From: Candidatus Gottesmanbacteria bacterium
GTDB lineage: Bacteria > Patescibacteriota > Microgenomatia > UBA10105 > UBA927
Direction of reading: 5' to 3'
Length of the DNA: 64,000 nucleotides
NCBI GenBank assembly: GCA_023245355.1
Contig: JAHFKN010000001.1
Span: 139,528-203,527, forward strand
Made by a program: the position numbers and the translations under genes
Shown: positions 5,886 to 62,485 of the stretch, one piece after another
Position numbering within the stretch: the first letter of the stretch is position 1
Layout of the letters: the number at the start of each line of letters is the position of its first letter
The notes under the pieces: model-generated
What the model saw: only the letters and a program-made list of their open reading frames with translations
Told to the model about the DNA's origin: nothing
Database searches by the model: none

Positions 5886-7304
5886 TTATTGCAGTGCGGC
5901 AGTGTTCACGCCGGACGAGAAATCCACTTCCGCAACGTTATGGAGGATATCCGAAACCTGTTTTTTCAGGATGTCGTACGCCTCCTGGGTTTTACCCTCA
6001 AATTTGACGGTAAGATAGGGCCCGTTCTGGCTGGCCCGCACGATTAACATCTCTTTTTCGGTATCCATGCGTACGCCGTCAATTTCCACATACGCCGCAT
6101 CGGGATAGAGTTTTTTGATCTCTCCGCCGATTTTTTCGCTGACTACAGCAAACTTCACCGCATCGGGGCATCCGACTTTTATCTCCGGACTGGAGACGTA
6201 CTGAGGCAATTCGTCGATAACCTGTGCCAGTGTTTTATCGACTCTGGTCAAATACGCCAAAAGCCGCAACGTGGCGATTGCTCCGTCATCATGGCCGTAA
6301 AAATTATCCATAAAGAAAAAATGTCCGGATAATTCTCCGCCGAACGGGGACCGTGCTTCGCGCACTTTTGCTTTGATAAACGAGTGTCCAGTCTTCCACA
6401 TCACGGGCGTGCCTCCGTGGCTGCGTATGACTTCATCAACCTGTTTGGAGCAAAGTGCGTTATAGACGATGTTGGCCCCCGGCAACGAGCCGAGCACATC
6501 GACAGCAAAGATCGACACGAGGACGTCATTCCAGATAAGTCGCCCCGTATGATCGACAATACCGATCCTATCTCCGTCACAATCATAGGAAAATCCCATA
6601 TCCGCTTTCTCTGCTAACACCCGTTTCGCAAGCCGTTCCTGCACGTCGTGCTCAGTCGGATCGGGTGTTCCCACCGGGAAATTTCCGTCGGGGGTGGTAT
6701 TCTGTTCGATGACCTCACACCCGAATGTCCGCAGAATATCCGGCAGATATATGCCGGTAGTCGCGGCACATGAGTCTACAACGACTTTAAAGCGCTTAAT
6801 CGTGTCTGTGCGGCGCTTCAGATCGTCGATATACTCCTGTTTTATGTCTTTTTGGATCACAACACCCTTAGGGCTTCGGGTAACGAACTTTCCGGATTTT
6901 ACGAGATCCCGGAGATCAATAATCTCCTCCGATAACATCGTCTCCGAAAAACCCATTCCGAACTTAAATCCGTTATATTCTTTCGGATTATGCGACGCGG
7001 TAATCATCACGAGCCCTTTGGTGCGGAAGAAATAGCCGGCAAAGTACGTAATCTGTGAAAGCGTCATGCCGATATCATACACGGTAATTCCTGAGTCAGT
7101 AAGCCCTTTTACCATCGCATCGCGGAATTCCGGACTTGAAAGGCGGCAGTCGTACCCGACAACACAATCATAAATCCTCCGCTGCAACAGCCAGGTGGCG
7201 TAGCCTCTCGCCAGGAGTTCGACGCGCTCGGCATCCAGTTCGCTTCCGACTAACCCCCTCAAGTCATATCCACGAAACACATGATCCGGTATTTGGGTTG
7301 CCAT
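5886..7304 (-). CDS. Phosphohexomutase (phosphomannomutase/phosphoglucomutase)
   Basis: Active-site phosphoserine loop ITASHNPKEYNGFK (TASHNP); Mg-binding DCDGDR; 472 aa. Confidence 0.85.
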   Translation of the reverse strand: MATQIPDHVFRGYDLRGLVGSELDAERVELLARGYATWLLQRRIYDCVVGYDCRLSSPEFRDAMVKGLTDSGITVYDIGMTLSQITYFAGYFFRTKGLVMITASHNPKEYNGFKFGMGFSETMLSEEIIDLRDLVKSGKFVTRSPKGVVIQKDIKQEYIDDLKRRTDTIKRFKVVVDSCAATTGIYLPDILRTFGCEVIEQNTTPDGNFPVGTPDPTEHDVQERLAKRVLAEKADMGFSYDCDGDRIGIVDHTGRLIWNDVLVSIFAVDVLGSLPGANIVYNALCSKQVDEVIRSHGGTPVMWKTGHSFIKAKVREARSPFGGELSGHFFFMDNFYGHDDGAIATLRLLAYLTRVDKTLAQVIDELPQYVSSPEIKVGCPDAVKFAVVSEKIGGEIKKLYPDAAYVEIDGVRMDTEKEMLIVRASQNGPYLTVKFEGKTQEAYDILKKQVSDILHNVAEVDFSSGVNTAALQ

Positions 7305-8838: not shown

Positions 8839-9092
8839 TCTGTCGTAAGTAAATAAAGCTCGTCGCCCGGCTTTACCGGCTCGTTTACCTGTATGCCGCA
8901 GGACTCTCCGGGTTCGACTTTCAGCACTTTCGCATGTTCTATCTGCATAGATGTAATAATCTGATTAAATTCCTTGTCGTGGCCGGATATTTTTACCGTA
9001 TCACCGACTTTCAGCGACTGATTCATGACTTCTATGACGGCAACCTGCAGCTTGTCATAGTAGTGAGTGACTCTGCCTATCTGTATATCCAT
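8835..9092 (-). CDS. Small beta-barrel protein, EF-Tu domain-2-like
   Basis: 85 aa with VGDTVKISG..VKPGDELYLLT, resembling translation-factor domain 2 barrels. Stop/start overlap with the neighbouring genes. Confidence 0.35.
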   Translation of the reverse strand: MDIQIGRVTHYYDKLQVAVIEVMNQSLKVGDTVKISGHDKEFNQIITSMQIEHAKVLKVEPGESCGIQVNEPVKPGDELYLLTTE

Positions 9093-10286: not shown

Positions 10287-11402
10287 CTACTTTACCACGT
10301 TCTCCCATGGGAAGCCACTTCGGCCGAAATGCCCGTATCTGGCAGTTTGCCGGTATATCGGCCGGCGCAGATTAAGCCCTTTTAATATACCCGGAACGGA
10401 CAGGTCTATAAGACTCCAGGCATACGCTTCGATATCTGCAATTGGCTTTTTTTCGGTACCGAACGTATCAATCGCTTTCCCCAGCGGCTCACGCTGACCT
10501 ATCACGTACGCCACACGCACCTCCACCCTGTCAGCCAACCCCTTTGCTACGATATTTTTTGCTATAAAACGCGCCGCATATGCCCCGCTCCTGTCTACCT
10601 TGGTCGGATCCTTGCCGGAGAACGCGCCTCCCCCGTGCCGGGAAAATCCGCCGTATGTATCTACAATAATTTTCCGCCCGGTAACTCCGGTATCGGAGGA
10701 AGGTCCTCCGATTTCCCACTGTCCCTTACTGCCGTTGACGACGACATTATCAAGAGACGGAGGCGTCAACTTATACTTTTTGAGCACGGGCTTGATCACT
10801 TTTTCATACAATGCTTTTTTAAGCTCGGCATTACTCACCTTGGGGTCATGCGGAACGGCAAGCACAATGCGCTCTACCGCCACGGGTTTATTGTTTTCAT
10901 AAATTACTTTCACTTCGCTTTTTCCGTCGGGACGCAAATACGGCAGTATCTTTTTCTCCCGCGTTTCGTCCATGCGTTCGACAAGCCGATGCGCGAGCAC
11001 GAGCGGCATCGGCATGTACTCCGGAGTTTCGTTTGTGGCGTACCCGAACATCATCCCCTGATCTCCCGCACCGCCGTCATCTACTCCCACCGCAATATCC
11101 GGTGACTGCTCGTGGATGTATACGGAAATCGGTGACTTATACGAAAAGTTGTATACGCCGTTGGTGTACCCCAAGGATTTAATCGTTTTCCTGGCAATCG
11201 CTTCATAATTCAGTTTCTTTTTGCAGGTCACTTCCCCCGCAAGGACGATCCGGTTTGTCGTAACCAGTGTCTCTACCGCCACCCGTGCTTTCGGGTCTAC
11301 AGAAAGTGCTGCGTCTACGATGGAATCCGAAATCTGGTCGCAGATTTTATCAGGATGCCCGCTTGCTACCGATTCGGATGTAAAATGCGTTATTTTTTTC
11401 AT
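10287..11402 (-). CDS. metK: S-adenosylmethionine synthetase
   Basis: Hallmark GGGAFSGKDPTKVDRSGAYAAR; N-terminal FTSESVASGHPDKICDQISD. Start at MKKITHF (11402). Confidence 0.95.
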   Translation of the reverse strand: MKKITHFTSESVASGHPDKICDQISDSIVDAALSVDPKARVAVETLVTTNRIVLAGEVTCKKKLNYEAIARKTIKSLGYTNGVYNFSYKSPISVYIHEQSPDIAVGVDDGGAGDQGMMFGYATNETPEYMPMPLVLAHRLVERMDETREKKILPYLRPDGKSEVKVIYENNKPVAVERIVLAVPHDPKVSNAELKKALYEKVIKPVLKKYKLTPPSLDNVVVNGSKGQWEIGGPSSDTGVTGRKIIVDTYGGFSRHGGGAFSGKDPTKVDRSGAYAARFIAKNIVAKGLADRVEVRVAYVIGQREPLGKAIDTFGTEKKPIADIEAYAWSLIDLSVPGILKGLNLRRPIYRQTARYGHFGRSGFPWENVVK

Positions 11403-11409
11403 ATATGCC

Positions 11410-11582
11410 TTTCCGCCCTGATAAGCAAAAAATAACCCCGCCAAGCGGGGTAAACTTTTTCCCTACTTCAGGCAAATCATTCCTCGGTATTCTACCGGGA
11501 TTCGTTTTGGCACCGTATCCCAATTTGGCTCGGTTGCCGGGCGGATTATTGAGCGAAATCTCTCCCCGCCACTCTTGATTTA
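11410..11582 (-). promoter_or_regulatory. SAM-I (S-box) riboswitch with intrinsic terminator in metK 5' leader
   Basis: Minus-strand leader reads TAAATCAAGAGTGGCGGGGAGAGA...AATCCGCCCGGCAACC...GGTGCCAA...GAGGAATGATTTG. This matches the SAM-I core (UCAAGAG-GGCGGAGGGA...CCCGGCAACC...GGUGCCAA...AGAUGA) with P1 AAATCA/TGATTT. It is followed by hairpin CCCCGCTTGGCGGGG + UUAUUUUUUG immediately before the metK ATG. Confidence 0.7.
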
Positions 11583-11622
11583 TTAACTTTTTATCTACGT
11601 TACTCTTCCCGGACGTATGTTG

Positions 11623-15333: not shown

Positions 15334-16311
15334 TTACCCGACTTGTGCGGATTTGAGGAATTCTGTGAGGACATCCTTAAACGCGGCTATACTCCGCTCA
15401 TCGGTAACAGAGCCGGTAAATACGGGCTTCCCGATTGATGTAAATACCCTGGCAGCGTTCCTGACTGCGTCTTTCGTAACCAAATCCGTCTTGTTTAAAA
15501 ATATGAGTTCCGGCTTTTCCAAAAGTGCCGGATTAAATTCCTTAAATTCATTGCGTACCGTTTCATAGGCGGCAAGGGGGTTTTCGACCGTGATATCGAT
15601 ACAGTGGACCAGCATACTGGTTTTTTCGATATGCTTTAGAAATTTCGTTCCGAGCCCGATACCGCGCGACGCACCTTCGATAAGACCGGGGATATCTGCA
15701 ATCGGATGCTTGCCAAACATGCCGATGGTAGGCTCCAATGTGGTAAAAGGATATGCTCCGATAGCAGGTGTCGCATTGGTGAGGACGGTTAATAAACTGC
15801 TTTTTCCGGCATTCGGAAGTCCGATAAGACCGATTTCTGCTATCAGCCGGAGTTCCAGGCGGATATTTTTTACCTCGCCGGCTCCTCCCAGCTCACGGTT
15901 CGTCGGTGCCTGGTTGGTCGCGGATTTGAACTTGAAGTTTCCAAAGCCTCCGGCGCCTCCCCGCGCGATCAGTACGGGCCTATCAACCTGACTGATTTCA
16001 ATCACTTTCCCACCGTCTACATCCGTAATGCGGGTTCCCAGAGGCACTTCAACCGTCACATGCTGGGCGTTTCTGCCGAAGCCATTGTGTTTGGTGCCGT
16101 GCCCGCCGTTTTCTCCCACAACTTTCTTCTTGTACCGAAAGTACCTAAGGTCATTCACATTGGGAGATCCCTGAAAAAGGACGTCTCCGCCGTTGCCGCC
16201 GTTGCCGCCGTCGGGACCTCCTCTGGCCTTCATGGAAGTGCGTGCAAATGTTGCAGCCCCGTTGCCGCCGTCGCCGGCTTTGACAATAATCGTTACGTTA
16301 TCTATGAGCAT
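15334..16311 (-). CDS. obg: GTPase Obg/CgtA
   Basis: Glycine-rich Obg fold MLIDNVTIIVKAGDGGNG..GGPDGGNGGNGGDV; G-domain GLPNAGKSSLL, DIPGLIEGA, NKTD. Confidence 0.9.
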   Translation of the reverse strand: MLIDNVTIIVKAGDGGNGAATFARTSMKARGGPDGGNGGNGGDVLFQGSPNVNDLRYFRYKKKVVGENGGHGTKHNGFGRNAQHVTVEVPLGTRITDVDGGKVIEISQVDRPVLIARGGAGGFGNFKFKSATNQAPTNRELGGAGEVKNIRLELRLIAEIGLIGLPNAGKSSLLTVLTNATPAIGAYPFTTLEPTIGMFGKHPIADIPGLIEGASRGIGLGTKFLKHIEKTSMLVHCIDITVENPLAAYETVRNEFKEFNPALLEKPELIFLNKTDLVTKDAVRNAARVFTSIGKPVFTGSVTDERSIAAFKDVLTEFLKSAQVG

Positions 16312-18603: not shown

Positions 18604-18844
18604 GTTGCACTGTGAGTGCAACTATTGTATGTTATCAGTGGTGCAAGTGCACTAGCTCTTTAAAACCGGAATATTTGTTTTTTGCCAAAAAACTTTCGCG
18701 CGGCGGAGGCTTACGCCTTCATAAAAACGGGGCATCATAGCCAACAATTATCGGGTATTGCTATATAGTTATTTATATTGCTATTACTTGCTATTTGGCT
18801 ATGTATATGTCTGATTCTTGTATGGATGGTGCAATCAAATGCAC
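18604..18844. promoter_or_regulatory. Operator-like palindromes with GTGCA/TGCAC half-sites: TTGCAC-tgtga-GTGCAA (18604-18622), GTGCA-ag-TGCAC (18641-18652), GTGCA-atcaaa-TGCAC (18829-18844)
   Basis: Three related inverted repeats upstream of the island 1 operon. The third lies about 50 bp upstream of the first gene's RBS. Confidence 0.45.
18757..18803 (+). repeat. Iteron-like direct repeats (A)TTGCTAT x3 + GGCTAT, phased 20/10/10 bp
   Basis: ATTGCTAT at 18757 and 18777, TTGCTAT at 18788, GGCTAT at 18798. Confidence 0.5.
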
Positions 18845-18895
18845 GGTCAATTTCAAACATTTTTTTGAGAGCTGCGAAAGGAGGTGAAATACCAT

Positions 18896-19180
18896 ATGGC
18901 AAAAAACAATACTGATGATTTAGTAGTTCCGGTTTCGGTCGCACATACATTGGTCGCAATATTCTTTGCGGATTCCAATAAAAAGGATCGGAATGTTGAT
19001 GAAATACATGCTGCGCTTTTTATAGCTGATAGGCTGAAGCATCGAGCAGAAGTATCTGAAGATGGATTCGTCCGAATTTCCGATGAGGAAGCGGTGACAA
19101 TTCTTCGTGAGCTTTACGCACGATTGTCTGACCCCTACAAACTAAAGAAAATAACGGATATGTTAACGACCCGAGGCTAA
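18896..19180 (+). CDS. Hypothetical protein (island 1, first gene)
   Basis: Strong RBS AAAGGAGGTGAAATACCAT-ATG; 94 aa. No known motif. Confidence 0.55.
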   Translation: MAKNNTDDLVVPVSVAHTLVAIFFADSNKKDRNVDEIHAALFIADRLKHRAEVSEDGFVRISDEEAVTILRELYARLSDPYKLKKITDMLTTRG

Positions 19181-19220
19181 CCCCTCCATCTTACAAAGCA
19201 ATTTACGTGTATAAACATCT

Positions 19221-19517
19221 ATGAAATTTGGAAAGGCCATAAATAAGTATCGCAAGGCTAAGAAGCTCTCTCAACGTGAGTTAGCCTTTATTGTGGGCGT
19301 AACACCCACATATTTATCTGCATTGGAAAACGACCGAAAAGAGCCAAGTATCAAGCTGATTCAAGAAATTTGTAAATCCTTGTCTATTCCTAAAGAAATA
19401 TTGTTTTGGGAGTCTCTCAACATGGTGGAGGGGATGACTCAAGATGATAAAAAAATTGTTTCTTCCGCAAAAGAAATCGTTAATAGTTATTTTCTTAAAT
19501 ATTCACATTTATCATGA
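19221..19517 (+). CDS. XRE-family HTH transcriptional regulator
   Basis: Cro/C1-type HTH LSQRELAFIVGVTPTYLSALENDRKEPSIKLIQEICKSLSIP. Confidence 0.8.
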   Translation: MKFGKAINKYRKAKKLSQRELAFIVGVTPTYLSALENDRKEPSIKLIQEICKSLSIPKEILFWESLNMVEGMTQDDKKIVSSAKEIVNSYFLKYSHLS

Positions 19518-20464
19518 TGGCTGCAAAAGCCTCTAAGATTATCACTTCCTCGTACAAAAGTTTTTGTGATTATCTGCGCATTTCCCCCGATGGTTTGGAA
19601 AAAATAATTCTCGGTCCAGATGCATTTATAGACCATAAATTTTCAAAGACCATAAAAGGAAAAAAACGTGATTTTTTGGTACCGAATACACAGCTTGCGG
19701 GTATCCTAAAGAAGATTGACCGTTTGGTTAAAAAACAAATTCCTCTTCCGTCTTACGTATACGGATGGGTTAAGGGAAAATCATCAAGAAAGAATGCGCT
19801 GTTACATGCGGGTGCTGAATATCTTTTTACCACTGATATAGAAAGTTTTTTTCCAAATATTTCACAACAAAAAATAAGCGACTCTCTTGTGAAGTCTGGT
19901 TTTAATCAAGTTGTCTCTACGAAGATTTCGTTGCTCACTACCTTTGGAGGAATATTGCCCCATGGATATCACTCCAGCCCAACCCTCGCCAATGTTGTCT
20001 TCATAGAAAATGATAGACGATTATATCGTTTGGCTAAGAAAAATCATTTTGTTTATAGTCGTTGTGGTGATGACATATCGTTGAGTGGTGAACGACCCGT
20101 TTATCCCCTTATGGGTACAATTAGCGCGATAGTGAGGCAGAGTGGTTTTATTTTATCTAAGAAAAAAACTATTAACTCGGGGCCTCACGACAAAAAAGTC
20201 ATCACAAAATTAGTTGTCAATTCTTCTCCAAGGCCAGAAAAAAAATACGTTTCAAATTTAAAGAATGATATTCGTTCATTATGGGAAGGTGGGGTTGGAT
20301 TAGCAAAACTTTCAAGGCAGAATGGCATGTCTCCAAAGAGAATGATTAAGAATATATGGGGTAGGCTACACTATGTAAAATCCTCAAACCCAAAATTGTA
20401 TCGGGCTATTCGCGGTCTTTTAGTTAAGGCTCGTACTAAGTTGGATATCGCGCCGCCGCGTTAA
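19514..20464 (+). CDS. Retron-type reverse transcriptase (non-canonical catalytic box CGDD)
   Basis: RT motifs: LVPNTQLAGILKKI; YGWVKGKSSRKNALLHAGAEYLFTTDIESFFPNI (retron 'GFVKGRS..NA..H......DLKDFFPSI'); LPHGYHSSPTLANVVF; YSRCGDDISLS (YxDD position); VITKLVVN (retron VTG region). 316 aa. ATGA overlap with the XRE stop. Confidence 0.7.
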   Translation: MMAAKASKIITSSYKSFCDYLRISPDGLEKIILGPDAFIDHKFSKTIKGKKRDFLVPNTQLAGILKKIDRLVKKQIPLPSYVYGWVKGKSSRKNALLHAGAEYLFTTDIESFFPNISQQKISDSLVKSGFNQVVSTKISLLTTFGGILPHGYHSSPTLANVVFIENDRRLYRLAKKNHFVYSRCGDDISLSGERPVYPLMGTISAIVRQSGFILSKKKTINSGPHDKKVITKLVVNSSPRPEKKYVSNLKNDIRSLWEGGVGLAKLSRQNGMSPKRMIKNIWGRLHYVKSSNPKLYRAIRGLLVKARTKLDIAPPR

Positions 20465-20530
20465 TGCGGGTCAAGGGCGCGTCTTCGCGCTTGCGGAGCC
20501 CTTGGCGCGCATTTGTGTTCCATAATTATT

Positions 20531-20578
20531 TTGGAGGAGAGGATGCTTTCCCAAGCAGCCTCCCTCCAATATTTTTTG
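20531..20578 (+). terminator. Putative intrinsic terminator after the RT gene
   Basis: TTGGAGGAGAGG...CCTCCCTCCAA stem followed by TATTTTTTG. Preceded by the GC hairpin GCGCG-TCTT-CGCGC. Confidence 0.4.
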
Positions 20579-21014
20579 TGTTTGGCGGCGCGATGATGAT
20601 AGCTATCCTATAATTCTATTTGCACTTTTTATTGTCAAGTGTAATAATTCCTTTTGCGAAACCAGTTACCAGTTGTTGAGAGCGCTTGCTACTGTTGCGT
20701 CCATGCATAAAGCATGGAAATTTCATCGGAGTTCGTCCTCAAAATCAAGCTTCTATTGTCGAAGCGGTTTAATCGTGAGATCTCAGATAAAGAAGCGATA
20801 GAGTTCTATCAAAGTCTCTATTACCTCGGTCGGGCTATCGCTCGTTTCCATGCTCCTCGGCATGAAAACACTAAAGCGAGTTAGCTCGTCCTCCCAATTA
20901 TCTTTGCTAGCAGGGGTGGCTCGCGACAGCGAGACCCTATGCTTGACTCCTTTTAGATCATTTCAAAAGGATAGGATAGACGGGTCTAAGGAATATCTTA
21001 AAGGCCGTTTTTTC

Positions 21015-21761
21015 GCCATGCGATCTCGACCATCGACGTTTTGTCGGCAAAATAAGTCGATGCTTCTGCACTACGATAATGGCAAAATTTCACATGCTAC
21101 CTTTTTGCGCATCCCGTGTCGTTCGTGGACGTGTCCCGATTGTGCTCCGACAAAAGCACATCGAGTTACCGCATTGCTTAAGGAGATCATTATCCTGAAT
21201 GATATGAAATATTTTTTGACTCTCACTCTCGATCCAGCAAATATTCCGCCCGAGTATTTGGTTCCAGAGAATCAGACGCATAAATATATAACCAAATTAT
21301 TTAACTCCCTTTTGTCCAATATTCGTTTGATCGAAAAAGATTTGCGTTATGTATGGGTTATAGAGTTTCAGAGAAATGGGAATGCGCATATGCATATTGT
21401 ATTAAATACTCGTCTCGATATCGTGCAGATTCGTAAAATTTGGACGCGTATCGGGGGTGGTGCGCAAAGTCGTGTTATGCAAATACGCGATCTTGTCAGT
21501 ATAGCTGCGTATCTTGCAAAATATGTTGGTAAAAGCTTGCTGGGATCTATTGGTAATCTGCATTATTTTGAGCGACGGTATAGCATTAGTCATTCGTGCA
21601 TGCGTCCTGTTATTTCTAAAGCAAAAACGTTTTATCCTGACCTTTCTCATGTGGGTCATTTGGCTATCTTGAGTCAGATGGGTTTACTTGGGGTATATAA
21701 TAAGCTTCTAATTGGCGACTTTATCGATGGCGAAACAATTTCTGTCGATAGAAAAATATGA
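21015..21761 (+). CDS. HUH-superfamily rolling-circle replication initiator (Rep)
   Basis: Motif I FLTLTLD; motif II HMHIVLN (HUHUUU); motif III YLAKYVGK (compare phiX174 gpA YVAKYVNK, two catalytic Tyr); Cys cluster CRSWTCPDC. The track ORF starts at 20850, but the likely start is the internal Met at about 21015. Confidence 0.65.
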   Translation, partial: AMRSRPSTFCRQNKSMLLHYDNGKISHATFLRIPCRSWTCPDCAPTKAHRVTALLKEIIILNDMKYFLTLTLDPANIPPEYLVPENQTHKYITKLFNSLLSNIRLIEKDLRYVWVIEFQRNGNAHMHIVLNTRLDIVQIRKIWTRIGGGAQSRVMQIRDLVSIAAYLAKYVGKSLLGSIGNLHYFERRYSISHSCMRPVISKAKTFYPDLSHVGHLAILSQMGLLGVYNKLLIGDFIDGETISVDRKI

Positions 21762-23242
21762 AATATTTTGTTTATAACCGTAAATCTACTGATGAATCTG
21801 GTAACCAGATTCTTTCCCTTGAGACCCAACGAGCCATAACCGATCATATAGCTCAACAATCTAGCTTGGAGGTTATAGAGACCATTCAGGAAGCCCGAAG
21901 TGCCAAGATTGCAGGCAATCGTCCGCTGTTTACCTCGATGCTTGTACGTGTTCGAGATGGGGAGGCAGAGGGGATAATTGTTGCGCACTTAGACCGACTA
22001 GCGCGTAACGAGAGGGAGTTAGCAGATATCGTCGAGCTTATGCAGAGTAAAGCGCTAAAAGAAGTTCGTACAAAGGATAAGATTTATGACTCGGTTGATG
22101 ATATTTACTACATGGGTATCGACCTTATTGGTGCAGCACAATTTTCTCGTAAACTTGCTGTTCGGGTAAAAGAGGGCATGCAAACAAAAGTTCGCCGTGG
22201 AGAATTCCCGACTCGCGCGCCGATAGGATATATAAACAGAGATGCAAAAATATATCCCGACCCAAACAACCTAAATTACATCAAATTAGCCTTTTCGCTG
22301 TATGCAGATGGCACGCATTCCCTTAAATCCATCACTTATATCCTGAATGACCGTGGTATGCGCACTCGGTACTCTAGGCAAGAGATACAAAAATCCGTTA
22401 TCCATGGAATACTTTCTAATCCTGTCTATTATGGAGCGATTCGTTCTGGTGGAACTCTCTACAAAGGAATTCACGAACCCATTATAAGCAAGGCGCTTTT
22501 TGATCAAGTACAAGAGGTTATGCACGGACATAATAATCCCAAGAAAGAAAAACATGACTATTTGTATCGCGGGTATCTCAAATGCGGCGTCTGTGGCTGT
22601 TCTCTCACCGCTACGCTTAAAAAGCAAAAACATATCTATTACTACTGCACCAATGCCAAAGGTGGTTGCACCCAGCACAATAAATATCTGACACAAGCAC
22701 AGGTTACTGAAAAAATCCCAGAAGTCTTTAAGCCCTTTTCCGCCTTAGAAGCAGATTTTGCACAGCTTGCTTATGAGACGTATGTGAACGATCTAAAAAA
22801 TGGAAGCGTGTCCGCACAAGATCAAGCAGAAGTGGCGCTAAAAGAGATAGATACTAAGTTGGGACGATTACTCGATCTCTACATTTCAGGGTCAGTCGAT
22901 GAGTCGTTGTATAACGAGAAGCGTAAAAAGTTGTCAGAGGAGCGCGTGAAATTAAGTCTCCAATTAACATCCCAAAAAACCGTAGACCCTACTTTAACTT
23001 TGGAACAAATGGAACGGCTGAAAAAGAGCGCTCTATCAATCTATACGATGTTTTGTGAGGGAGATGACTTAGTAAAGGCTGATCTATTGCGTTCAGCACT
23101 TTGGAACGCGCATTGGGTAAATGGAAACATCACGTCCCAGCAATACAAACCTCTTTGGCAAATACTTGAAAAAGGCCTCAAAAGTACCGATTTTAAAACT
23201 ATGTACCCCCTGCCGGATTCGAACCGGCGATTCACGGGCTGA
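21758..23242 (+). CDS. Large serine recombinase (integrase)
   Basis: N-terminal resolvase domain YNRKSTDESGNQILSLETQ (catalytic Ser region) and IIVAHLDRLARN; recombinase domain; zinc ribbon CGVCGC...YYYC. The C-terminal about 13 codons and the stop are encoded antisense within tRNA-Glu. Confidence 0.85.
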   Translation: MKYFVYNRKSTDESGNQILSLETQRAITDHIAQQSSLEVIETIQEARSAKIAGNRPLFTSMLVRVRDGEAEGIIVAHLDRLARNERELADIVELMQSKALKEVRTKDKIYDSVDDIYYMGIDLIGAAQFSRKLAVRVKEGMQTKVRRGEFPTRAPIGYINRDAKIYPDPNNLNYIKLAFSLYADGTHSLKSITYILNDRGMRTRYSRQEIQKSVIHGILSNPVYYGAIRSGGTLYKGIHEPIISKALFDQVQEVMHGHNNPKKEKHDYLYRGYLKCGVCGCSLTATLKKQKHIYYYCTNAKGGCTQHNKYLTQAQVTEKIPEVFKPFSALEADFAQLAYETYVNDLKNGSVSAQDQAEVALKEIDTKLGRLLDLYISGSVDESLYNEKRKKLSEERVKLSLQLTSQKTVDPTLTLEQMERLKKSALSIYTMFCEGDDLVKADLLRSALWNAHWVNGNITSQQYKPLWQILEKGLKSTDFKTMYPLPDSNRRFTG

Positions 23243-23277
23243 AAACCCGTTGTCCTAGGCCGCTAGACGAAGGGGGC
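23204..23277 (-). tRNA. tRNA-Glu (anticodon UUC)
   Basis: Reverse complement GCCCCCTTCGTCTAGCGGCCTAGGACAACGGGTTTTCAGCCCGTGAATCGCCGGTTCGAATCCGGCAGGGGGTA. Cloverleaf with anticodon loop UUUUCAG. Close to E. coli tRNA-Glu. Confidence 0.85.
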
Positions 23278-57467: not shown

Positions 57468-59120
57468 CTAAAAAGGGAATCCTACACATGGGAATCCCTT
57501 ATAGCGGGCGTAGTACACTGGTAGTATATATCCTTCCCAAGGATAGGAAGAGGGTTCGATTCCCTTCGCCCGCTCCATATCGGAATTATTTTTCGAAAGT
57601 GAGCCTTTATCCCCATTTATCGACCCTTTTTCGGGTCCGAGCCGACCTTTTTCATCATCGTACTCATTTTCAATCTTTTTTAAGTAGATAAATGCTTTTT
57701 TGCCGTCAATTCGCACTAATCTGTCTTTTAAAACCAGGTCCGAGCCAAGAATCCTTAGTACCATTCTTTTAACCTCAATATCGTCAACATTGAAGATTTT
57801 GGTGACATTTGCAGCAAAGTTTAGAGTCTCTTCCATAGACTTTGTCCAGGAGGCTAAGCCGTCGGTTTCTATACTTTTTTTGGTTTGTTTTTCTTCGGTG
57901 AGGAGTCGAGTCTTTTCCTTTTGATACTCTTCCTCAGTAATCATTCCGTCGATCTTCATACCATAAAGAGATTTTTTCTCAACAAGAATTGTATCGAGTC
58001 GTTTTGTCTGTTTACCCTTTTGGGTACGTTCAAAGGCAAACTCTCGTTCATTCCGGCGCCTGAGGTTATTTTTTACCCATTCAACAAAAGCGGGGCGTAT
58101 TTCTAAACTGGCAACAAACTCTCGCACCTGTTTCTCGACCTCAATGCCATTTAAATAAGGTTGGTGGCATGGTCCCTTCTTTTTTGTACATCGAGCATAA
58201 ATAAAGGTCTGTGATGTCCCACCTTTATAGTGCTTAGTCTTTTTCTCGGCTGTAATCGCTGCACCACATTCGCCACATTTTAAGATTTTCATAAAGTAGA
58301 AGTTGTTGTGCTGAGTGAAGACTCGTTTCCGGCCGTCAATAATATCCTGAACCCTTTGATATTCGTCAAGCGTAATCATAGGTTGGTGTTTACCCTCATA
58401 TCTCTCACCAGCATAGTCAAACATCCCAGTGTAAAAAACGTTCCTAAAGAACCTAAACGATTCAGTAATGCTGACTGGTCGTCCAACTCTTCTTCGACTT
58501 CTTAACCCTAGCAAGGTTATTTTTTCGAGCGAACTAATTACGGTCTCGTCTCCAGTTAACATCAGGTCCCACCACTTTCGGCACAGGTCAAATCGTTCAG
58601 TATCAACAAGAACTTCCTTTTGACCCTTTGGTTTGAAGTAATCATTGAGGTAACCAAGCGGAGCATTTCCCGGTCTCCAGCCATTTTGCACTTTGGTATT
58701 CATGCCTCTTTTAACATTGTCAGAAAGATCCTTACTAAACTTGGTAGCCATACCAAACTCAATAAAAAGGAATGTTGAATTATTGCGATCGTAGTCCATA
58801 GTAGGGGTGACGATCAACATACCGTTATAATCGACGTGATCGATCAGAGTGCCGCCCTCCTTGGCATTACGACAGAGCCGGTCGGCTTTCCAACAGAAAA
58901 TGTGTTTTACTTCGCCTTTGGAAACTCGCTCAACCATAGCTTTAAACTCTGGACGACGGTCCGGACGTTTGGCTGATTTACTCTCCTTATAGATGCCTAT
59001 GACCGCAAAACCCTTGTCTTTAGCAAGTTCCTTACAAGTACGCTCCTGATCATCGAGGGAGAGAATTTGGCGGTCCTTATCCTCAGAGGATTTCCTACAA
59101 TAAATAAAACAAGTATTCAT
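57468..59120 (-). CDS. Large serine recombinase (integrase), paralogous to the island 1 recombinase
   Basis: MNTCFIYCRKSSEDKDRQILSLDDQE, CWKADRLCRN, zinc ribbon CGECGA...YARC. The C-terminal about 36 codons as called are antisense of tRNA-Gly and the flanking sequence. Confidence 0.85.
   Translation of the reverse strand: MNTCFIYCRKSSEDKDRQILSLDDQERTCKELAKDKGFAVIGIYKESKSAKRPDRRPEFKAMVERVSKGEVKHIFCWKADRLCRNAKEGGTLIDHVDYNGMLIVTPTMDYDRNNSTFLFIEFGMATKFSKDLSDNVKRGMNTKVQNGWRPGNAPLGYLNDYFKPKGQKEVLVDTERFDLCRKWWDLMLTGDETVISSLEKITLLGLRSRRRVGRPVSITESFRFFRNVFYTGMFDYAGERYEGKHQPMITLDEYQRVQDIIDGRKRVFTQHNNFYFMKILKCGECGAAITAEKKTKHYKGGTSQTFIYARCTKKKGPCHQPYLNGIEVEKQVREFVASLEIRPAFVEWVKNNLRRRNEREFAFERTQKGKQTKRLDTILVEKKSLYGMKIDGMITEEEYQKEKTRLLTEEKQTKKSIETDGLASWTKSMEETLNFAANVTKIFNVDDIEVKRMVLRILGSDLVLKDRLVRIDGKKAFIYLKKIENEYDDEKGRLGPEKGSINGDKGSLSKNNSDMERAKGIEPSSYPWEGYILPVYYARYKGFPCVGFPF
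57504..57577 (+). tRNA. tRNA-Gly (anticodon CCC)
   Basis: GCGGGCGTAGTACACTGGTAGTATATATCCTTCCCAAGGATAGGAAGAGGGTTCGATTCCCTTCGCCCGCTCCA, with encoded CCA. Near-identical acceptor and T arms to E. coli tRNA-Gly(CCC). Confidence 0.85.
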
Positions 59121-59395
59121 AATTTAGTGGCCACATCTGGTAACCGGTTGGTGTTGATGTTAACTCTTCCACGAGTTGATTCAAGTCGTTTTTTAACTAG
59201 GGCGTCAAAAAGATTGAGAAGGGCCGTGGCTTGTTCGAAGGCTTGGCTGTCCGTTAGCTTAATTCCATACTCTTTTAAGGCTATTGCTTTAAATTCATCC
59301 AATTCATCTCTGGTAATGAGCGAGTTGGTGAGTATTAATTCGTCTGTGTCCTTAGCTGGTTCTTTAGCTGAAGTTTCTGTCATTGTATATAACAA
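59117..59395 (-). CDS. Hypothetical small protein upstream of the recombinase (possible recombination directionality factor or regulator)
   Basis: 92 aa; 4-nt overlap with the recombinase start. More protein-like than the antisense ORF 59067-59426. Confidence 0.4.
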   Translation of the reverse strand: MLYTMTETSAKEPAKDTDELILTNSLITRDELDEFKAIALKEYGIKLTDSQAFEQATALLNLFDALVKKRLESTRGRVNINTNRLPDVATKL

Positions 59396-59626
59396 ACGTA
59401 CAGAAACTGGTGGTTTATCTCAATAAACTTTGTGGATTTTTATGTCCACATAAGTAGACTAATGTAAGTTTCTCTCCAATTTAGCCTGGGAGGTTCGATT
59501 GACAGAAGGGGGTGAAATTTGGTATATTACTAGTACCGAATGATCTCGGTGGTGAAAGTACCTTTTAAGGGAGCGAATGTCGGCACAGAAATGTGATCCG
59601 TCTTGGCCACAGGGATCGAACTTTTT

Positions 59627-60256
59627 TCAGTAAGGTTTCCACAAGTCTTCTTCCCTCTTTTTAATCATCTTATAGAACGTGTCGTCACTTCGATTGTATT
59701 TCCGGTAAATTGCCCCACAGACCATATCCGCCAGTTGCAGCAAGTTGTTGCTTTTAGAGTCTTTGTGTCTAATCTGGCCCAAGAGCTTCTCGATGTCAGT
59801 GTTGAGTTTCTTCCTTAAGTACCCGTTAAACTCCCGTATAAAGTGTTTACTGGTCAAATCGACGAACAACGATGCGTGGTTAATCCGATTCTGAGCTCTC
59901 ATAAAGAGTTGGTCAGCCACCAACATATACAAACTGTCAGTTGGGTTGAGAGGTTCTCTTTTGAGAAGCTTCGTTTTATCGATAATAACTGAGCGGTAAT
60001 GAAAATCAAAGCGGGACAATTTTCGCAAAAAGACTTCCTTCTCGTGATTTGAGGTGCCGGTGCTGAATTTAAACTCTCTTCCCGGATGAAACTTGAGATC
60101 CTTTTTAAGTTGGTTAATGGCGTCGTTGGCTTTCTCGGCTGCGTCTAAGTCGTCAAATATAACGATGGTCAAGACAAAATAGGGACTGGAGACTCTCTTA
60201 AAGTTGAATCCGGTGTCACCTGACTCATCCATAAAGATGAGCATGGCTAGTGACAT
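59627..60256 (-). CDS. DUF3800-family protein
   Basis: N-terminal LIFMDESGDTGF and C-terminal LLQLADMVCGAIYRKY (DUF3800 hallmarks). 209 aa. 10-nt overlap with the ImmA-like gene. Confidence 0.75.
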   Translation of the reverse strand: MSLAMLIFMDESGDTGFNFKRVSSPYFVLTIVIFDDLDAAEKANDAINQLKKDLKFHPGREFKFSTGTSNHEKEVFLRKLSRFDFHYRSVIIDKTKLLKREPLNPTDSLYMLVADQLFMRAQNRINHASLFVDLTSKHFIREFNGYLRKKLNTDIEKLLGQIRHKDSKSNNLLQLADMVCGAIYRKYNRSDDTFYKMIKKREEDLWKPY

Positions 60257-60699
60257 AGATCCCCCTTTTGAGTTGTTCCAAACCCCAATTTCAAAAAATT
60301 TTTAGTAACGAGGAAATAGTCAGCTGCAGTTGCAAGAGGGAGCTGATTTGTTTTAGTCAGTAATTCGCGGGGCATTAACAACTCTGTGGCAAAACACTCC
60401 GCTTCATACTCCTGTTTAAAATTAACAAATTGATCACAACTTTCGAAATAGAGTTGATTCCCTGTATGGAGAAAGTGATGACCTAAGGCGTGGGCAATGA
60501 GCTCGCGCCTTTTTCGTTTATCGGTGTGTGAGCGAATGCCAATACTATCACCTAAATAGACTTCCTTTACGCGGCCACCAAATGACCACTCGTCCAAGGT
60601 TAGCCCTTCGGCGGTAACAATTTTATGTAAATCTATTGGGGCAGTAGATAGATCGTACTTGCGTAAAATCTGTCTAGCCCTTCTTTGGGCCTTTATCAT
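60247..60699 (-). CDS. ImmA/IrrE-family (COG2856) metallopeptidase-like protein, HExxH Glu replaced (HALGH)
   Basis: ELIAHALGHHFLH...EAECFATELLMP matches the ImmA pattern (F.IAHELGH..LH...E.EA..FA..LLMP), with Ala at the catalytic Glu position. Confidence 0.65.
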   Translation of the reverse strand: MIKAQRRARQILRKYDLSTAPIDLHKIVTAEGLTLDEWSFGGRVKEVYLGDSIGIRSHTDKRKRRELIAHALGHHFLHTGNQLYFESCDQFVNFKQEYEAECFATELLMPRELLTKTNQLPLATAADYFLVTKNFLKLGFGTTQKGDLCH

Positions 60700-61141
60700 A
60701 TTTTTGTCGGCGTCGGGTTTTTACATACCCGATATAGTCCATGACCGACTCCTTCTCGCTATTGGTCATGTCCTGAACTTCTTTAAGCATTAGCGTAAAT
60801 GAGGCATCCTGCTTGAGCTTGTCGCTGGTCTTATCCAAATACCCAGCTTTATTTAAAAGAGTCTCGTTGGGAATTTGATAAACAAATGCCAATGCCTTCA
60901 GCTTAAGCGGTGAAGGATGTTGATATTTTCCTAACTCAAGGTTGGATAGATATCCGCGCGAAACAGCAGACTGGGGATCCAATTTACCACTTTTAATTGC
61001 TGCCTTGGTTGACTCCACTACCGAACGGAGAGTGAAATCTTTTGCTTCTCGAAGTTTGCACAAATACTCACCAACCGTAGCAAAATCGTCGGGTCCTTTT
61101 AATGTGGTTTCTTTGTTTGTTTTTGTCTTCATATAGGTCAA
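60674..61141 (-). CDS. XRE-family HTH regulator (ImmR-like)
   Basis: HTH VGEYLCKLREAKDFTLRSVVEST...RGYLSNLELGK. Overlaps the ImmA-like gene start. Confidence 0.7.
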   Translation of the reverse strand: MTYMKTKTNKETTLKGPDDFATVGEYLCKLREAKDFTLRSVVESTKAAIKSGKLDPQSAVSRGYLSNLELGKYQHPSPLKLKALAFVYQIPNETLLNKAGYLDKTSDKLKQDASFTLMLKEVQDMTNSEKESVMDYIGYVKTRRRQKYDKGPKKG

Positions 61142-61286
61142 TAAACTCGCTGATTTTTATTGTAACAGAAAAAGTAAGTAATTACTTATTATTCATATTA
61201 TAATGATAGTTGTCTACATAAATGGACACAAACAATCATAAAGTTTATTGAAGTAAATTGCAAGAATTTGTACCTTTGTATATAAC

Positions 61287-61556
61287 ATGACAAAAACGAA
61301 ATCTAAAAAAACAATATTCATCAATAAGGACAAGAGAGTTAACAATGAGCTGTTCGATGAAGTCAGACTCACCAAAGGACTATCTCGATTTCAATTGGCT
61401 GTAGAGGTCGAGCTTTCTCCCCAAACAGTTAGACGAGTTTTAGTTTCCGACGAAGACCCACGACCATCAACGGTTAAAAAGGTGGGTGACTTTTTAGGAA
61501 TACCGGCAAAAGAATGGTACTTAAAAAGAGAAAGCAAGGAGGTGAACCATGGATAA
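61287..61556 (+). CDS. Cro-like small HTH protein (divergent from XRE)
   Basis: LSRFQLAVEVELSPQTVRRVL...VKKVGDFLGIP. 89 aa. Confidence 0.5.
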   Translation: MTKTKSKKTIFINKDKRVNNELFDEVRLTKGLSRFQLAVEVELSPQTVRRVLVSDEDPRPSTVKKVGDFLGIPAKEWYLKRESKEVNHG

Positions 61557-61704
61557 AGCAATGAAATCTAGGATCCGTGCAAGGAAGCGAAGATATTACC
61601 TCTACCGCCTAAAGATATTTATGTGGAAATGGTTGGCGATATTACTTGGCATCTGGATTATTTACCAGCTTCTAGGGACATTTTTCCACCGATGCTGGTT
61701 GTGA
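61549..61704 (+). CDS. Small hydrophobic protein (51 aa)
   Basis: Strong RBS AAGGAGGTGAACC-ATG overlapping the Cro-like stop; MDKAMKSRIRARKRRYYLYRLKIFMWKWLAILLGIWIIYQLL. Below the ORF-track threshold. Confidence 0.35.
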   Translation: MDKAMKSRIRARKRRYYLYRLKIFMWKWLAILLGIWIIYQLLGTFFHRCWL

Positions 61705-61762: not shown

Positions 61763-62485
61763 ATGATGGCAAGAATCAACTACACCACAATCAATCACGA
61801 GGCTCGAGCCAGGTTGGGTTTAACCATCAATGAATACTGTGTGTACGATTTAATCCACAACTTGGCGAGTAACCCCAAAAACATTCAGATGGGCTGGTGC
61901 TATGCCAAGAAAGAAACGATTGCTGATTACTTAGATCTTGGTCGAGCCACTGTCTTTCGAGCCATTAAAAAAGGCTTGAAAATAAATCTCCTTGAAAAGC
62001 ATCCCGAACAACCGGCGTTCTTAAAAGCCACCAGCGATTGGTATGACTCGGTGATGATTAAAACAGAGTCTCAAAATGAGACGGCTAGTATCAATATGAG
62101 ACGAGAGGCGTCTCAAAGTGAGATAAAACCGCATCTCAAAATGAGACTGAACAAAGATATAGAGAACAATGAAAATGACAACAGAGAAATTGTCAATTTA
62201 AAAAAATCTTCAAAAGGTATTGTTTCGATTGGTCAAGTGATTGCAAACCACCAACACAGCTTACTCGGAGTAGAAAACGAATGGGAAGTGGAGGCCATAC
62301 GACTCTGGCATGAGTTAAGTTTGTCAGGAGATCCGAGCGAGTCGTTCGTAAAACACATCCATCGATATATCAAAAAGAATTTACAGGTAAAGCTTTCCGT
62401 TGCTCTTTCATATTGCAAAGATGCAACCAAAGTTCGTGATAGAGAAAAGTTATTTTATTGGCGCTGTGCTAACGAGCCAGCGTAA
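61763..62485 (+). CDS. Hypothetical protein, possible winged-helix replication/organiser protein
   Basis: N-terminal ARLGLTINEYCVYDLIH..KETIADYLDLGRATVFRAIKKG (wHTH-like); acidic low-complexity middle. 240 aa. Confidence 0.4.
   Translation: MMARINYTTINHEARARLGLTINEYCVYDLIHNLASNPKNIQMGWCYAKKETIADYLDLGRATVFRAIKKGLKINLLEKHPEQPAFLKATSDWYDSVMIKTESQNETASINMRREASQSEIKPHLKMRLNKDIENNENDNREIVNLKKSSKGIVSIGQVIANHQHSLLGVENEWEVEAIRLWHELSLSGDPSESFVKHIHRYIKKNLQVKLSVALSYCKDATKVRDREKLFYWRCANEPA

Follow-up and report, generated by a model that had tools for sequence, protein, structure and literature searches.

The 64,000-nucleotide (nt) stretch of DNA analysed here, from contig JAHFKN010000001.1 of a Candidatus Gottesmanbacteria bacterium and referred to as the window, contains three overlapping minus-strand genes for an XRE-family helix-turn-helix (HTH) protein, an M78/ImmA-like protein and a DUF3800 protein. 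We consider it probable, though well short of settled, that a temperate phage is integrated here at a tRNA-Gly gene of a Patescibacteria genome and that the locus is its lysogeny operon, carrying an RNA-controlled DUF3800 nuclease cassette. As a new finding, we show that the DUF3800 gene and a convergent structured small RNA form a separable cassette inserted in this probable Patescibacteria prophage lysogeny operon. The loci compared with the window are public contigs or genome loci (labelled L001, L172 and so on). The clade comprises 77 loci with DUF3800 proteins 66–97% identical to that of the window, and denominators count the loci with enough sequence for the comparison in question.

Anatomy of the XRE–M78–DUF3800 operon

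The components of the operon and its RNA partner are as follows.

60674–61141, minus strand: XRE-family HTH protein, 155 residues from TTG (152 if the ATG at 61132 is used, as called in L002); proposed ImmR-like prophage repressor
60247–60699, minus strand: M78/ImmA-like protein, 150 residues; peptidase domain only, with HALGH instead of HEXXH
59627–60256, minus strand: DUF3800 protein, 209 residues; predicted RNase HII-like fold, with D10, E11, E61, D133 and Q174xxD177 conserved; putative cargo gene
59535–59627, plus strand: convergent structured small RNA, ~92 nt, 5′ end predicted; its U-run touches the DUF3800 stop codon
59431–59450, minus strand: terminator-like hairpin with a weak T-run; candidate end of the XRE–M78–DUF3800 transcript

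Reading the junctions confirmed the three genes and both overlaps reported in a preliminary description of this DNA. The XRE stop codon (TAG, 60674–60676) lies within M78, which starts with ATG at 60699, giving an overlap of 26 nt, and the M78 stop codon (TAG, 60247–60249) lies within DUF3800, which starts with ATG at 60256, giving an overlap of 10 nt. A strong DUF3800 Shine-Dalgarno sequence, AAGGGGGA, is found inside the M78 3′ end. From the gene overlaps we infer co-transcription and translational coupling of the three genes. Since its T-run is weak, the hairpin at 59431–59450 is put forward as a possible transcript end.

The domain identities of the preliminary description also held in profile searches. 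In Pfam, the DUF3800 protein matched PF12686 (E 1e-19, 72.1 bits against a gathering cut-off of 21, over the full-length profile, 1–149) and the M78 protein, a COG2856/ImmA-like protein, matched PF06114 Peptidase_M78 (E 4.7e-11, 43 bits against a cut-off of 22). The latter further matched the phrog_87 metalloprotease (3.6e-18) and the PADLOC model capP (5.3e-12, profile positions 4–120 of 242). The XRE protein gave a sub-gathering-score Pfam match to HTH_19 (E 9.4e-6) and PADLOC matches to capH (3.3e-5) and HTH_VI (1.5e-3), and its assignment is supported by the capH match together with conservation in relatives. Within the clade, 74 of 75 loci have M78 immediately upstream of DUF3800 and 65 of 66 have XRE, so the arrangement is, on these counts, beyond chance. 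A related recombinase follows no more than 1.5 kb downstream of DUF3800 in 52 of the 54 loci.

A structured small RNA convergent with DUF3800

Every clade member conserves the first ~125 nt that follow the DUF3800 stop codon, whichever gene comes next. We identify in this region a predicted small RNA convergent with DUF3800, a fourth component that the preliminary description had missed, with the following elements.

59499–59528, plus strand: promoter-like site (TTGACA, 18 nt, TG-TATATT) with 11 of 12 consensus matches and an extended −10; best site in 59050–61700
59542–59552 with 59607–59617, plus strand: stem P1, the outer stem of 11 base pairs
59561–59563 with 59569–59571, plus strand: hairpin P2, short and invariant
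59579–59586 with 59593–59602, plus strand: hairpin P3, covarying
59622–59627, plus strand: U-run at the DUF3800 stop codon

In the clade alignments the promoter keeps its −35 and TGnTATAnT elements, and the RNA has a conserved 5′ leader, ACCGAAUGA. Structure tests were made on an alignment (A4) of 28 distinct sequences. Standard pairs occupy 93.2% of cells in the proposed structure, compared with 30–48% when the partners are slid, and compensatory changes are seen at 11 pairs, compared with 1–2. The tests also favour the plus strand, on which 93.2% of cells pair and 52 G-U pairs are found; for the DUF3800 strand these values are 87.0% and 9. At the locus, the covariance model built for the RNA (R2) scored 95 bits, its sole significant match in the window. 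R2 found the RNA in all 71 clade loci with available sequence and also in L178–L180, which were absent from the training set.

Rfam searches of the whole window at gathering scores, and of 57–64 kb and 59380–59680 at E up to 10, returned no DUF3800 RNA family. We describe the RNA as a new DUF3800-linked motif, on this evidence not represented in Rfam. A pattern scan of IMG/VR for the 5′ signature returned nine extra contigs, all chance matches when tested with R2.

Duplex energies between the RNA and the DUF3800 translation start were no better than those of shuffles (median z of 0.02 for the new RNA, and of −0.24 for DUF3800-IX, the RNA of distant homologues described below). Trans-antisense action on the translation start is unsupported because there is no such excess complementarity. 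If the mRNA reads through to the hairpin at 59431–59450, its 3′ untranslated region (UTR) would be fully complementary to the RNA, and a cis-antisense component is thus possible. A GTTCGATCC stretch prompted us to consider a tRNA-like or att remnant. This was rejected, as no tRNA was found by ARAGORN or Rfam and the covarying pairs define a different structure.

Backbone and cassette occur apart

Relatives of the window prophage were found that lack DUF3800. L172 (Microgenomates) has a cro gene divergent from XRE–M78–orf81–serine recombinase, with the identical 26-nt overlap and no DUF3800 gene. Its proteins are 51% (XRE), 53% (M78), 50% (orf81 against orf92, the small open reading frame (ORF) upstream of the window recombinase), 65% (recombinase) and 68% (Cro) identical to those of the window. 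In L163, XRE–M78 (26-nt overlap) is followed directly by the recombinase, and L175 has a similar DUF3800-less layout plus an HTH_17 excisionase-like gene. Model R2 found no match to the new RNA in these three backbones. The cassette in turn is found alone in L178–L180, where the DUF3800 protein is 46–48% identical to that of the window, has no XRE or M78 neighbour, and is accompanied by the same RNA antisense at the stop codon (E 9e-12 to 2e-8). The occurrence of the backbone with and without the cassette, and of the cassette with and without the backbone, indicates that protein and RNA belong together as a single unit.

Because the same arrangement and 26-nt overlap exist in the DUF3800-less relatives, the XRE–M78 pair is most likely an ImmR/ImmA-type lysogeny switch belonging to the conserved backbone, and not a dedicated DUF3800 regulator. 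DUF3800 itself is plausibly mobile-island cargo, as the preliminary description had suggested, since in this lineage it always lies within the prophage lysogeny module. The M78-to-integrase interval would then behave, from these comparisons, as a cargo hotspot.

Two variants were noted downstream of the cassette. L115 (6792–8538), and also L109, has an extra ribbon-helix-helix protein and an opposite-strand ABC1 atypical kinase after the DUF3800–RNA pair, and L031 (6812–7330) has a DUF2726 protein in the same slot.

The DUF3800 protein

In a 28-sequence alignment E11, E61, K94, D133, S167, Q174 and D177 are invariant and D10 is nearly so. The protein retains the canonical DE...QxxD signature as FMDESGD (D10, E11) and LQLAD (Q174, D177); the N-terminal DE and C-terminal QxxD are established DUF3800 motifs (PMC7736814). 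The AlphaFold model, with a predicted local distance difference test (pLDDT) score of 85.7, had RNase HII/HIII as its top structural matches among solved structures. The DUF3800 protein is thereby predicted to have an RNase HII-like (RNase H2-like) fold, and an RNase H-like fold was earlier predicted for DUF3800 (PMC7736814; PMC10910872). A profile search of the PDB returned no solved sequence-level relative.

The window and L017 genes differ with a non-synonymous rate (dN) of 0.026 and a synonymous rate (dS) of 0.913, and the median dN/dS is 0.06 among unsaturated clade pairs, indicating strong purifying selection. PADLOC matched the window protein only to PDC-M04A and PDC-S51, and the literature searched described no function for PDC-M04.

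Distant homologues carry a different RNA

DUF3800 genes have been known since 2017 to have at least 11 unrelated-looking structured RNAs, and many different RNA structures accompany them (Weinberg et al., PMC5737381). Distant homologues of the window protein (32–43% identity) are found in Verrucomicrobiota, Acidobacteriota, Planctomycetota, other Patescibacteria and one archaeal metagenome-assembled genome. In 60 of 64 distant loci the Rfam family DUF3800-IX (RF02968) lies on the opposite strand and ends at the DUF3800 stop codon, and its loops and junctions are invariant across phyla. No conserved protein neighbour was found in the 64 loci: 88 flanking ORFs gave 154 Pfam families, each confined to two loci at most, and the listed 25 commonest flanking families include no M78 and no HTH family.

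The window RNA resembles DUF3800-IX (RF02968; Weinberg et al. 2017, PMC5737381) in being a structured RNA beside DUF3800, convergent with it and placing its U-run at the stop codon. The topology is also alike: in both, P1 encloses two hairpins as an outer stem, is followed by GAA and has UAG/UGG ahead of its 3′ strand. However, the covariance models of the two motifs do not detect each other. R1, a DUF3800-IX model built from 25 loci, found no match in the window or in 16 clade genome loci, and the reciprocal search with R2 found none in 67 distant loci. The window RNA, although a structured RNA adjacent to DUF3800, matches no Rfam model, including those curated for DUF3800-I to XI. DUF3800-IX is ~67 nt long, compared with ~92 nt for the window RNA with its ACCGAAUGA leader, and is found in arbitrary chromosomal contexts, whereas the window RNA lies in a prophage repressor operon. 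Given the shared topology, position and orientation, we regard the new RNA as either a divergent relative or a functional analogue of DUF3800-IX.

Several individual loci differ from this pattern. L036, a Verrucomicrobiaceae locus, has two DUF3800-IX copies 2.3 kb apart (6635–6710 and 8940–9015), and L013 (Acidobacteria) has two Acido-Lenti-1 RNAs near its DUF3800 gene (10791–10836 and 16070–16115). At the thresholds used, L032/L009, L044, L047 and L054 gave no match to DUF3800-IX or to the new RNA; they include a 43% identical Anaerolineales locus with a downstream gap of 253 nt. These loci may carry yet another motif.

The XRE–M78 pair compared with ImmR/ImmA and CapH/CapP

The layout immR–immA–int is that of ICEBs1 and phi105 (Bose et al. 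2008, as relayed in bioRxiv 10.1101/2022.04.27.489752; PMC8960796). As far as these accounts describe it, the window matches this layout in having an HTH repressor, then an M78/COG2856 protein, then an integrase on one strand, divergent from excision or early genes, as well as in its short M78 protein without a GAF domain and its integrated mobile element. The same co-oriented layout is present in L172, L163 and L175. Compared with the systems so described, the window has HALGH rather than HEXXH, a Patescibacteria host, DUF3800 and RNA genes between M78 and the integrase region, and a large serine recombinase as integrase. With the layout kept and HEXXH missing, the pair has the ImmR/ImmA arrangement but lacks one defining feature of an active ImmA.

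The M78 protein reads HALGHH where ImmA, IrrE and CapP have HEXXH, and A71 stands in place of the catalytic Glu in all 12 sequences of an alignment (A6) of the window protein with eleven relatives, which include M78 proteins from DUF3800-less elements. The zinc ligands are kept, both the His ligands and the third Glu ligand; CapP aligns with HELGH. We take these proteins to be a new ImmA-like family, defined in the alignment by HALGH and the absence of the canonical catalytic glutamate. Its members may use another catalytic base, act without proteolysis or be pseudo-proteases.

CapH and CapP come from the two protein families to which the window pair belongs, and PADLOC gave them as its best matches. 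The genes of a CapH/CapP pair precede the operon under their control and are encoded on its opposite strand, and CapP consists of a peptidase, a linker and a GAF domain (bioRxiv 10.1101/2022.04.27.489752). In the window, by contrast, DUF3800 follows M78 on one strand with a 10-nt overlap, and the M78 protein of 150 residues is too short for a linker and GAF domain and lacks the HEXXH of CapP.

Prophage setting

The operon lies in a region, island 2, with the following further features.

57468–59120, minus strand: large serine recombinase, prophage integrase (Resolvase 7.9e-23, Zn_ribbon_recom, phrog_95 integrase 9.7e-62); its 3′ end overlaps tRNA-Gly
57504–57577, plus strand: tRNA-Gly(CCC), integration site and left prophage edge
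59117–59395, minus strand: orf92, small ORF (88–92 residues); backbone gene that directly precedes the recombinase gene and overlaps it
61287–61556, plus strand: Cro-like HTH gene, divergent from the XRE operon and first of the early/replication genes (HTH_3 4.4e-5, PHROG repressor families)
61763–62485, plus strand: replication-initiator-like gene (PHROG match), after the Cro-like gene
61241–61251, plus strand: operator-like 11-mer AAGTTTATTGA, with a putative operator role
59420–59430, minus strand: further copy of the 11-mer, upstream of orf92–integrase
61138–61148, minus strand: copy with one mismatch, at the XRE start

Right of tRNA-Gly the GC content changes from ~0.50 to 0.38–0.44. The identical contig L001 runs past the window end and contains a ParB-methyltransferase, a small terminase subunit, a large terminase subunit (phrog_675, 2e-90) and a sigma factor, and the lysogeny module was found at the ends of 8 IMG/VR viral contigs. 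From this gene content, island 2 is identified as a prophage integrated at tRNA-Gly. A tblastn search of DUF3800 against 50,697 records of cultured phages gave no match. The last ~37 recombinase codons (57468–57577) traverse the tRNA-Gly gene on the opposite strand, and the attachment site thus seemingly lies within both genes.

orf92 matched no family in Pfam or PHROG searches and is present in 34 of the 54 clade loci; it is possibly a directionality factor. A gap of 231 nt separates it from DUF3800. The AAGTTTATTGA 11-mer has 6 matches in the window, against 1.44 expected, with 3 to 4 of them in the 6.5 kb of island 2. The regions upstream of orf92–integrase (59415–59451, minus strand) and of the Cro-like gene (61222–61290, plus strand) both contain AAGTTTATTGA and TGTACnTTTGT(T)ATATA directly before the ATG, which suggests that the two promoters are paralogous, possibly leaderless, and co-regulated. 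The shared 11-mer and paralogous upstream regions are the pattern expected if one repressor were to control the early and excision genes. An inverted repeat, I1, is also found at the operator-like region.

The protein names given in the relatives indicate a Patescibacteria host near Daviesbacteria. Contigs L018–L020, L023 and L031, which carry the Patescibacteria prophage module, are titled Pseudomonadales or Gammaproteobacteria, probably through bin mislabelling.

Model and alternative explanations

We propose that the prophage backbone consists of XRE, M78, orf92 and the serine integrase, together with the divergent Cro-like and replication genes. XRE would be an ImmR/CI-type repressor that is expressed in the lysogen and acts on the early and excision promoters, with M78 as its ImmA-type partner in a putative anti-repressor role. 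Between M78 and orf92 would sit a two-part cassette, comprising DUF3800 and the ~92-nt convergent RNA, whose terminator abuts the DUF3800 stop codon. Since DUF3800 appears translationally coupled to the repressor operon, it would be co-expressed with the repressor in the lysogen. The RNA would be made from its own, probably constitutive, promoter, and may bind, restrain or otherwise specify the nuclease. The pair would then most likely serve in exclusion or abortive infection, or in toxin–antitoxin-like addiction, to the benefit of the lysogen or the prophage.

In phage lambda, rexAB are prophage moron/exclusion genes co-transcribed with the repressor gene cI. The window is alike in having an accessory gene in the repressor transcript near the integrase end of the prophage, in a slot that varies among relatives. 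It differs in that its cargo is a protein with a predicted RNase H fold and its own RNA partner, for which exclusion is only proposed. By analogy with a type III antitoxin, the window RNA may work by restraining the nuclease. Type III (ToxIN-like) systems, however, have a tandem-repeat RNA upstream of and co-oriented with the toxin gene, whereas that of the window is single-copy, convergent and downstream. With type I toxin–antitoxin systems that have a 3′-overlapping antisense RNA, only the convergent geometry is shared, since the toxin there is a small hydrophobic peptide and here a 209-residue soluble protein with an RNase H-like fold.

Several points weigh against our account. The host is uncultured, the RNA 5′ end is a prediction, and the literature searched assigned no function to RNAs associated with DUF3800. 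The M78 protein has no catalytic Glu, which makes it doubtful that the repressor is cleaved in the manner of ImmA. Nor is DUF3800 patchy in the prophage clade: it is conserved throughout, as might also be expected of a core phage function. The flanks of the distant homologues are mostly housekeeping genes and not defence islands, which favours a selfish or toxin–antitoxin-like role over classical defence; such random flanks resemble the distribution of toxin–antitoxin cassettes more closely than that of defence islands.

We weighed four other explanations. The XRE and ImmA-like proteins might form a dedicated CapH/CapP-like sensor/regulator, with DUF3800 as a toxin or defence effector that they silence until the DNA is damaged or infection occurs. 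CapH/CapP-like pairs are reported beside many defence operons (bioRxiv 10.1101/2022.04.27.489752), PADLOC matched the pair best to the capP and capH models, the three overlapping genes are kept together in 74 of 75 clade loci, and even under the prophage model the XRE operon promoter would set DUF3800 output. Yet the pair with its 26-nt overlap stands beside the same integrase family in the DUF3800-less backbones L172 and L163, and DUF3800 and the RNA do without XRE or M78 in L178–L180, as DUF3800 does in the 64 distant loci. CapH/CapP are moreover divergent, with a C-terminal GAF domain in CapP, while the window genes are co-oriented, and the M78 protein aligns to capP positions 4–120 of 242 only and has no catalytic Glu. 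We therefore think such a regulator unlikely. Of the regulated toxin/defence module in the preliminary description, we keep the regulated operon, its place on an island and the candidate effector, but neither its dedicated XRE/M78 regulator nor its retron connection is retained. We give still less credence to DUF3800 being a phage nucleic-acid-processing enzyme, for example a replication or repair RNase H, with the RNA as an ordinary cis-antisense regulator of its mRNA. The RNase HII/HIII structural matches, the presence of DUF3800 under strong purifying selection in every member of the prophage clade, and the full complementarity of a read-through 3′ UTR that follows from the convergent geometry would fit this idea. 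However, DUF3800 is part of the repressor operon, which runs in the opposite direction to the replication genes, and close backbone relatives lack it. Plain antisense pairing would not require loops and junctions that are invariant across phyla, the distant homologues are solitary chromosomal genes with a dedicated RNA, and the RNA has no excess complementarity to the translation start.

It is also very improbable that the conserved sequence after DUF3800, instead of being a separate RNA gene, acts as a DNA site or belongs to the DUF3800 strand as a structured 3′ UTR. Although 87% of cells still pair on that strand, the 52 plus-strand G-U pairs become A-C there, eleven pairs show compensatory changes, the 11/12 promoter with its extended −10 and the U-run have the polarity of a plus-strand RNA gene, and the DUF3800-IX RNA has the same position, orientation and topology in distant homologues. 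Finally, type VII retrons have DUF3800 as their accessory domain (Mestre et al. 2020, PMC7736814), and a retron reverse transcriptase (RT) lies 39 kb away in the same window, in island 1. The preliminary description had suggested that the DUF3800 protein might be a type VII-like effector, either occupying the RT slot of a sister island as alternative cargo or acting in a split or trans arrangement. The window locus shares with type VII retrons the DUF3800 domain, an RNase H2-like fold and a non-coding nucleic acid partner. It differs in having no fused or adjacent RT: none was found in 57.5–64 kb, in the 10 kb past the window or in the clade loci inspected. Q174xxD177 is kept, whereas retron type VII DUF3800 proteins lack the Q of QxxD (PMC7736814), and the RNA shows no sign of msr-msd. 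The PADLOC library includes the RT-DUF3800_VII-A1 and RT_VII-A2 models, yet no retron model matched the window DUF3800, which matched PDC-M04A and PDC-S51 only. In island 1 the RT has a partner of its own, HTH_VI, with which it makes up a type VI retron. The recombinases of the two islands are 27% identical, their XRE proteins have no detectable similarity, and a 4.5-kb retron element and a prophage with terminase genes are elements of different kinds. The retron explanation is thus largely refuted, and we give it almost no weight.

Returning to the prophage operon with an RNA-controlled cassette, the locus adds a further DUF3800 RNA motif with clear covariation, and offers a natural experiment in which prophage backbone and cassette are found both together and each without the other. 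Its setting in a temperate-phage repressor operon suggests when DUF3800 is made, the cassette is compact (~0.75 kb), and the locus documents the architecture of a lysogeny module and its cargo hotspot in Patescibacteria phages. More speculatively, and with considerable doubt, DUF3800 proteins and their cognate convergent small RNAs might be widespread, self-contained, RNA-gated nuclease modules of RNase H fold, a new type of toxin–antitoxin or abortive-infection system across many phyla. A structured RNA, rather than a protein or multicopy single-stranded DNA (msDNA), would hold or direct the nuclease, and the Patescibacteria version would be wired into a lysogeny operon with a catalytically altered HALGH anti-repressor.

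Island 1 and the host part of the window

The integrative element that forms island 1 (18884–23277) measures 4.5 kb. It contains a complete type VI retron together with a rolling-circle Rep, and its serine recombinase lies at tRNA-Glu.

19221–19517: HTH_VI (PADLOC 5e-21)
19514–20464: RT (~1e-49 to the RT_VI and RT_III-A models)
20850–21761: rolling-circle Rep
21758–23242: large serine recombinase, ending inside tRNA-Glu

Two perfect inverted repeats (18675–18687 with 18897–18909, and 20447–20457 with 20584–20594) could bracket msr-msd. In the host part of the window we noted an S-adenosylmethionine (SAM) riboswitch (RF00162, 48.1 bits) at 11471–11584 on the minus strand.

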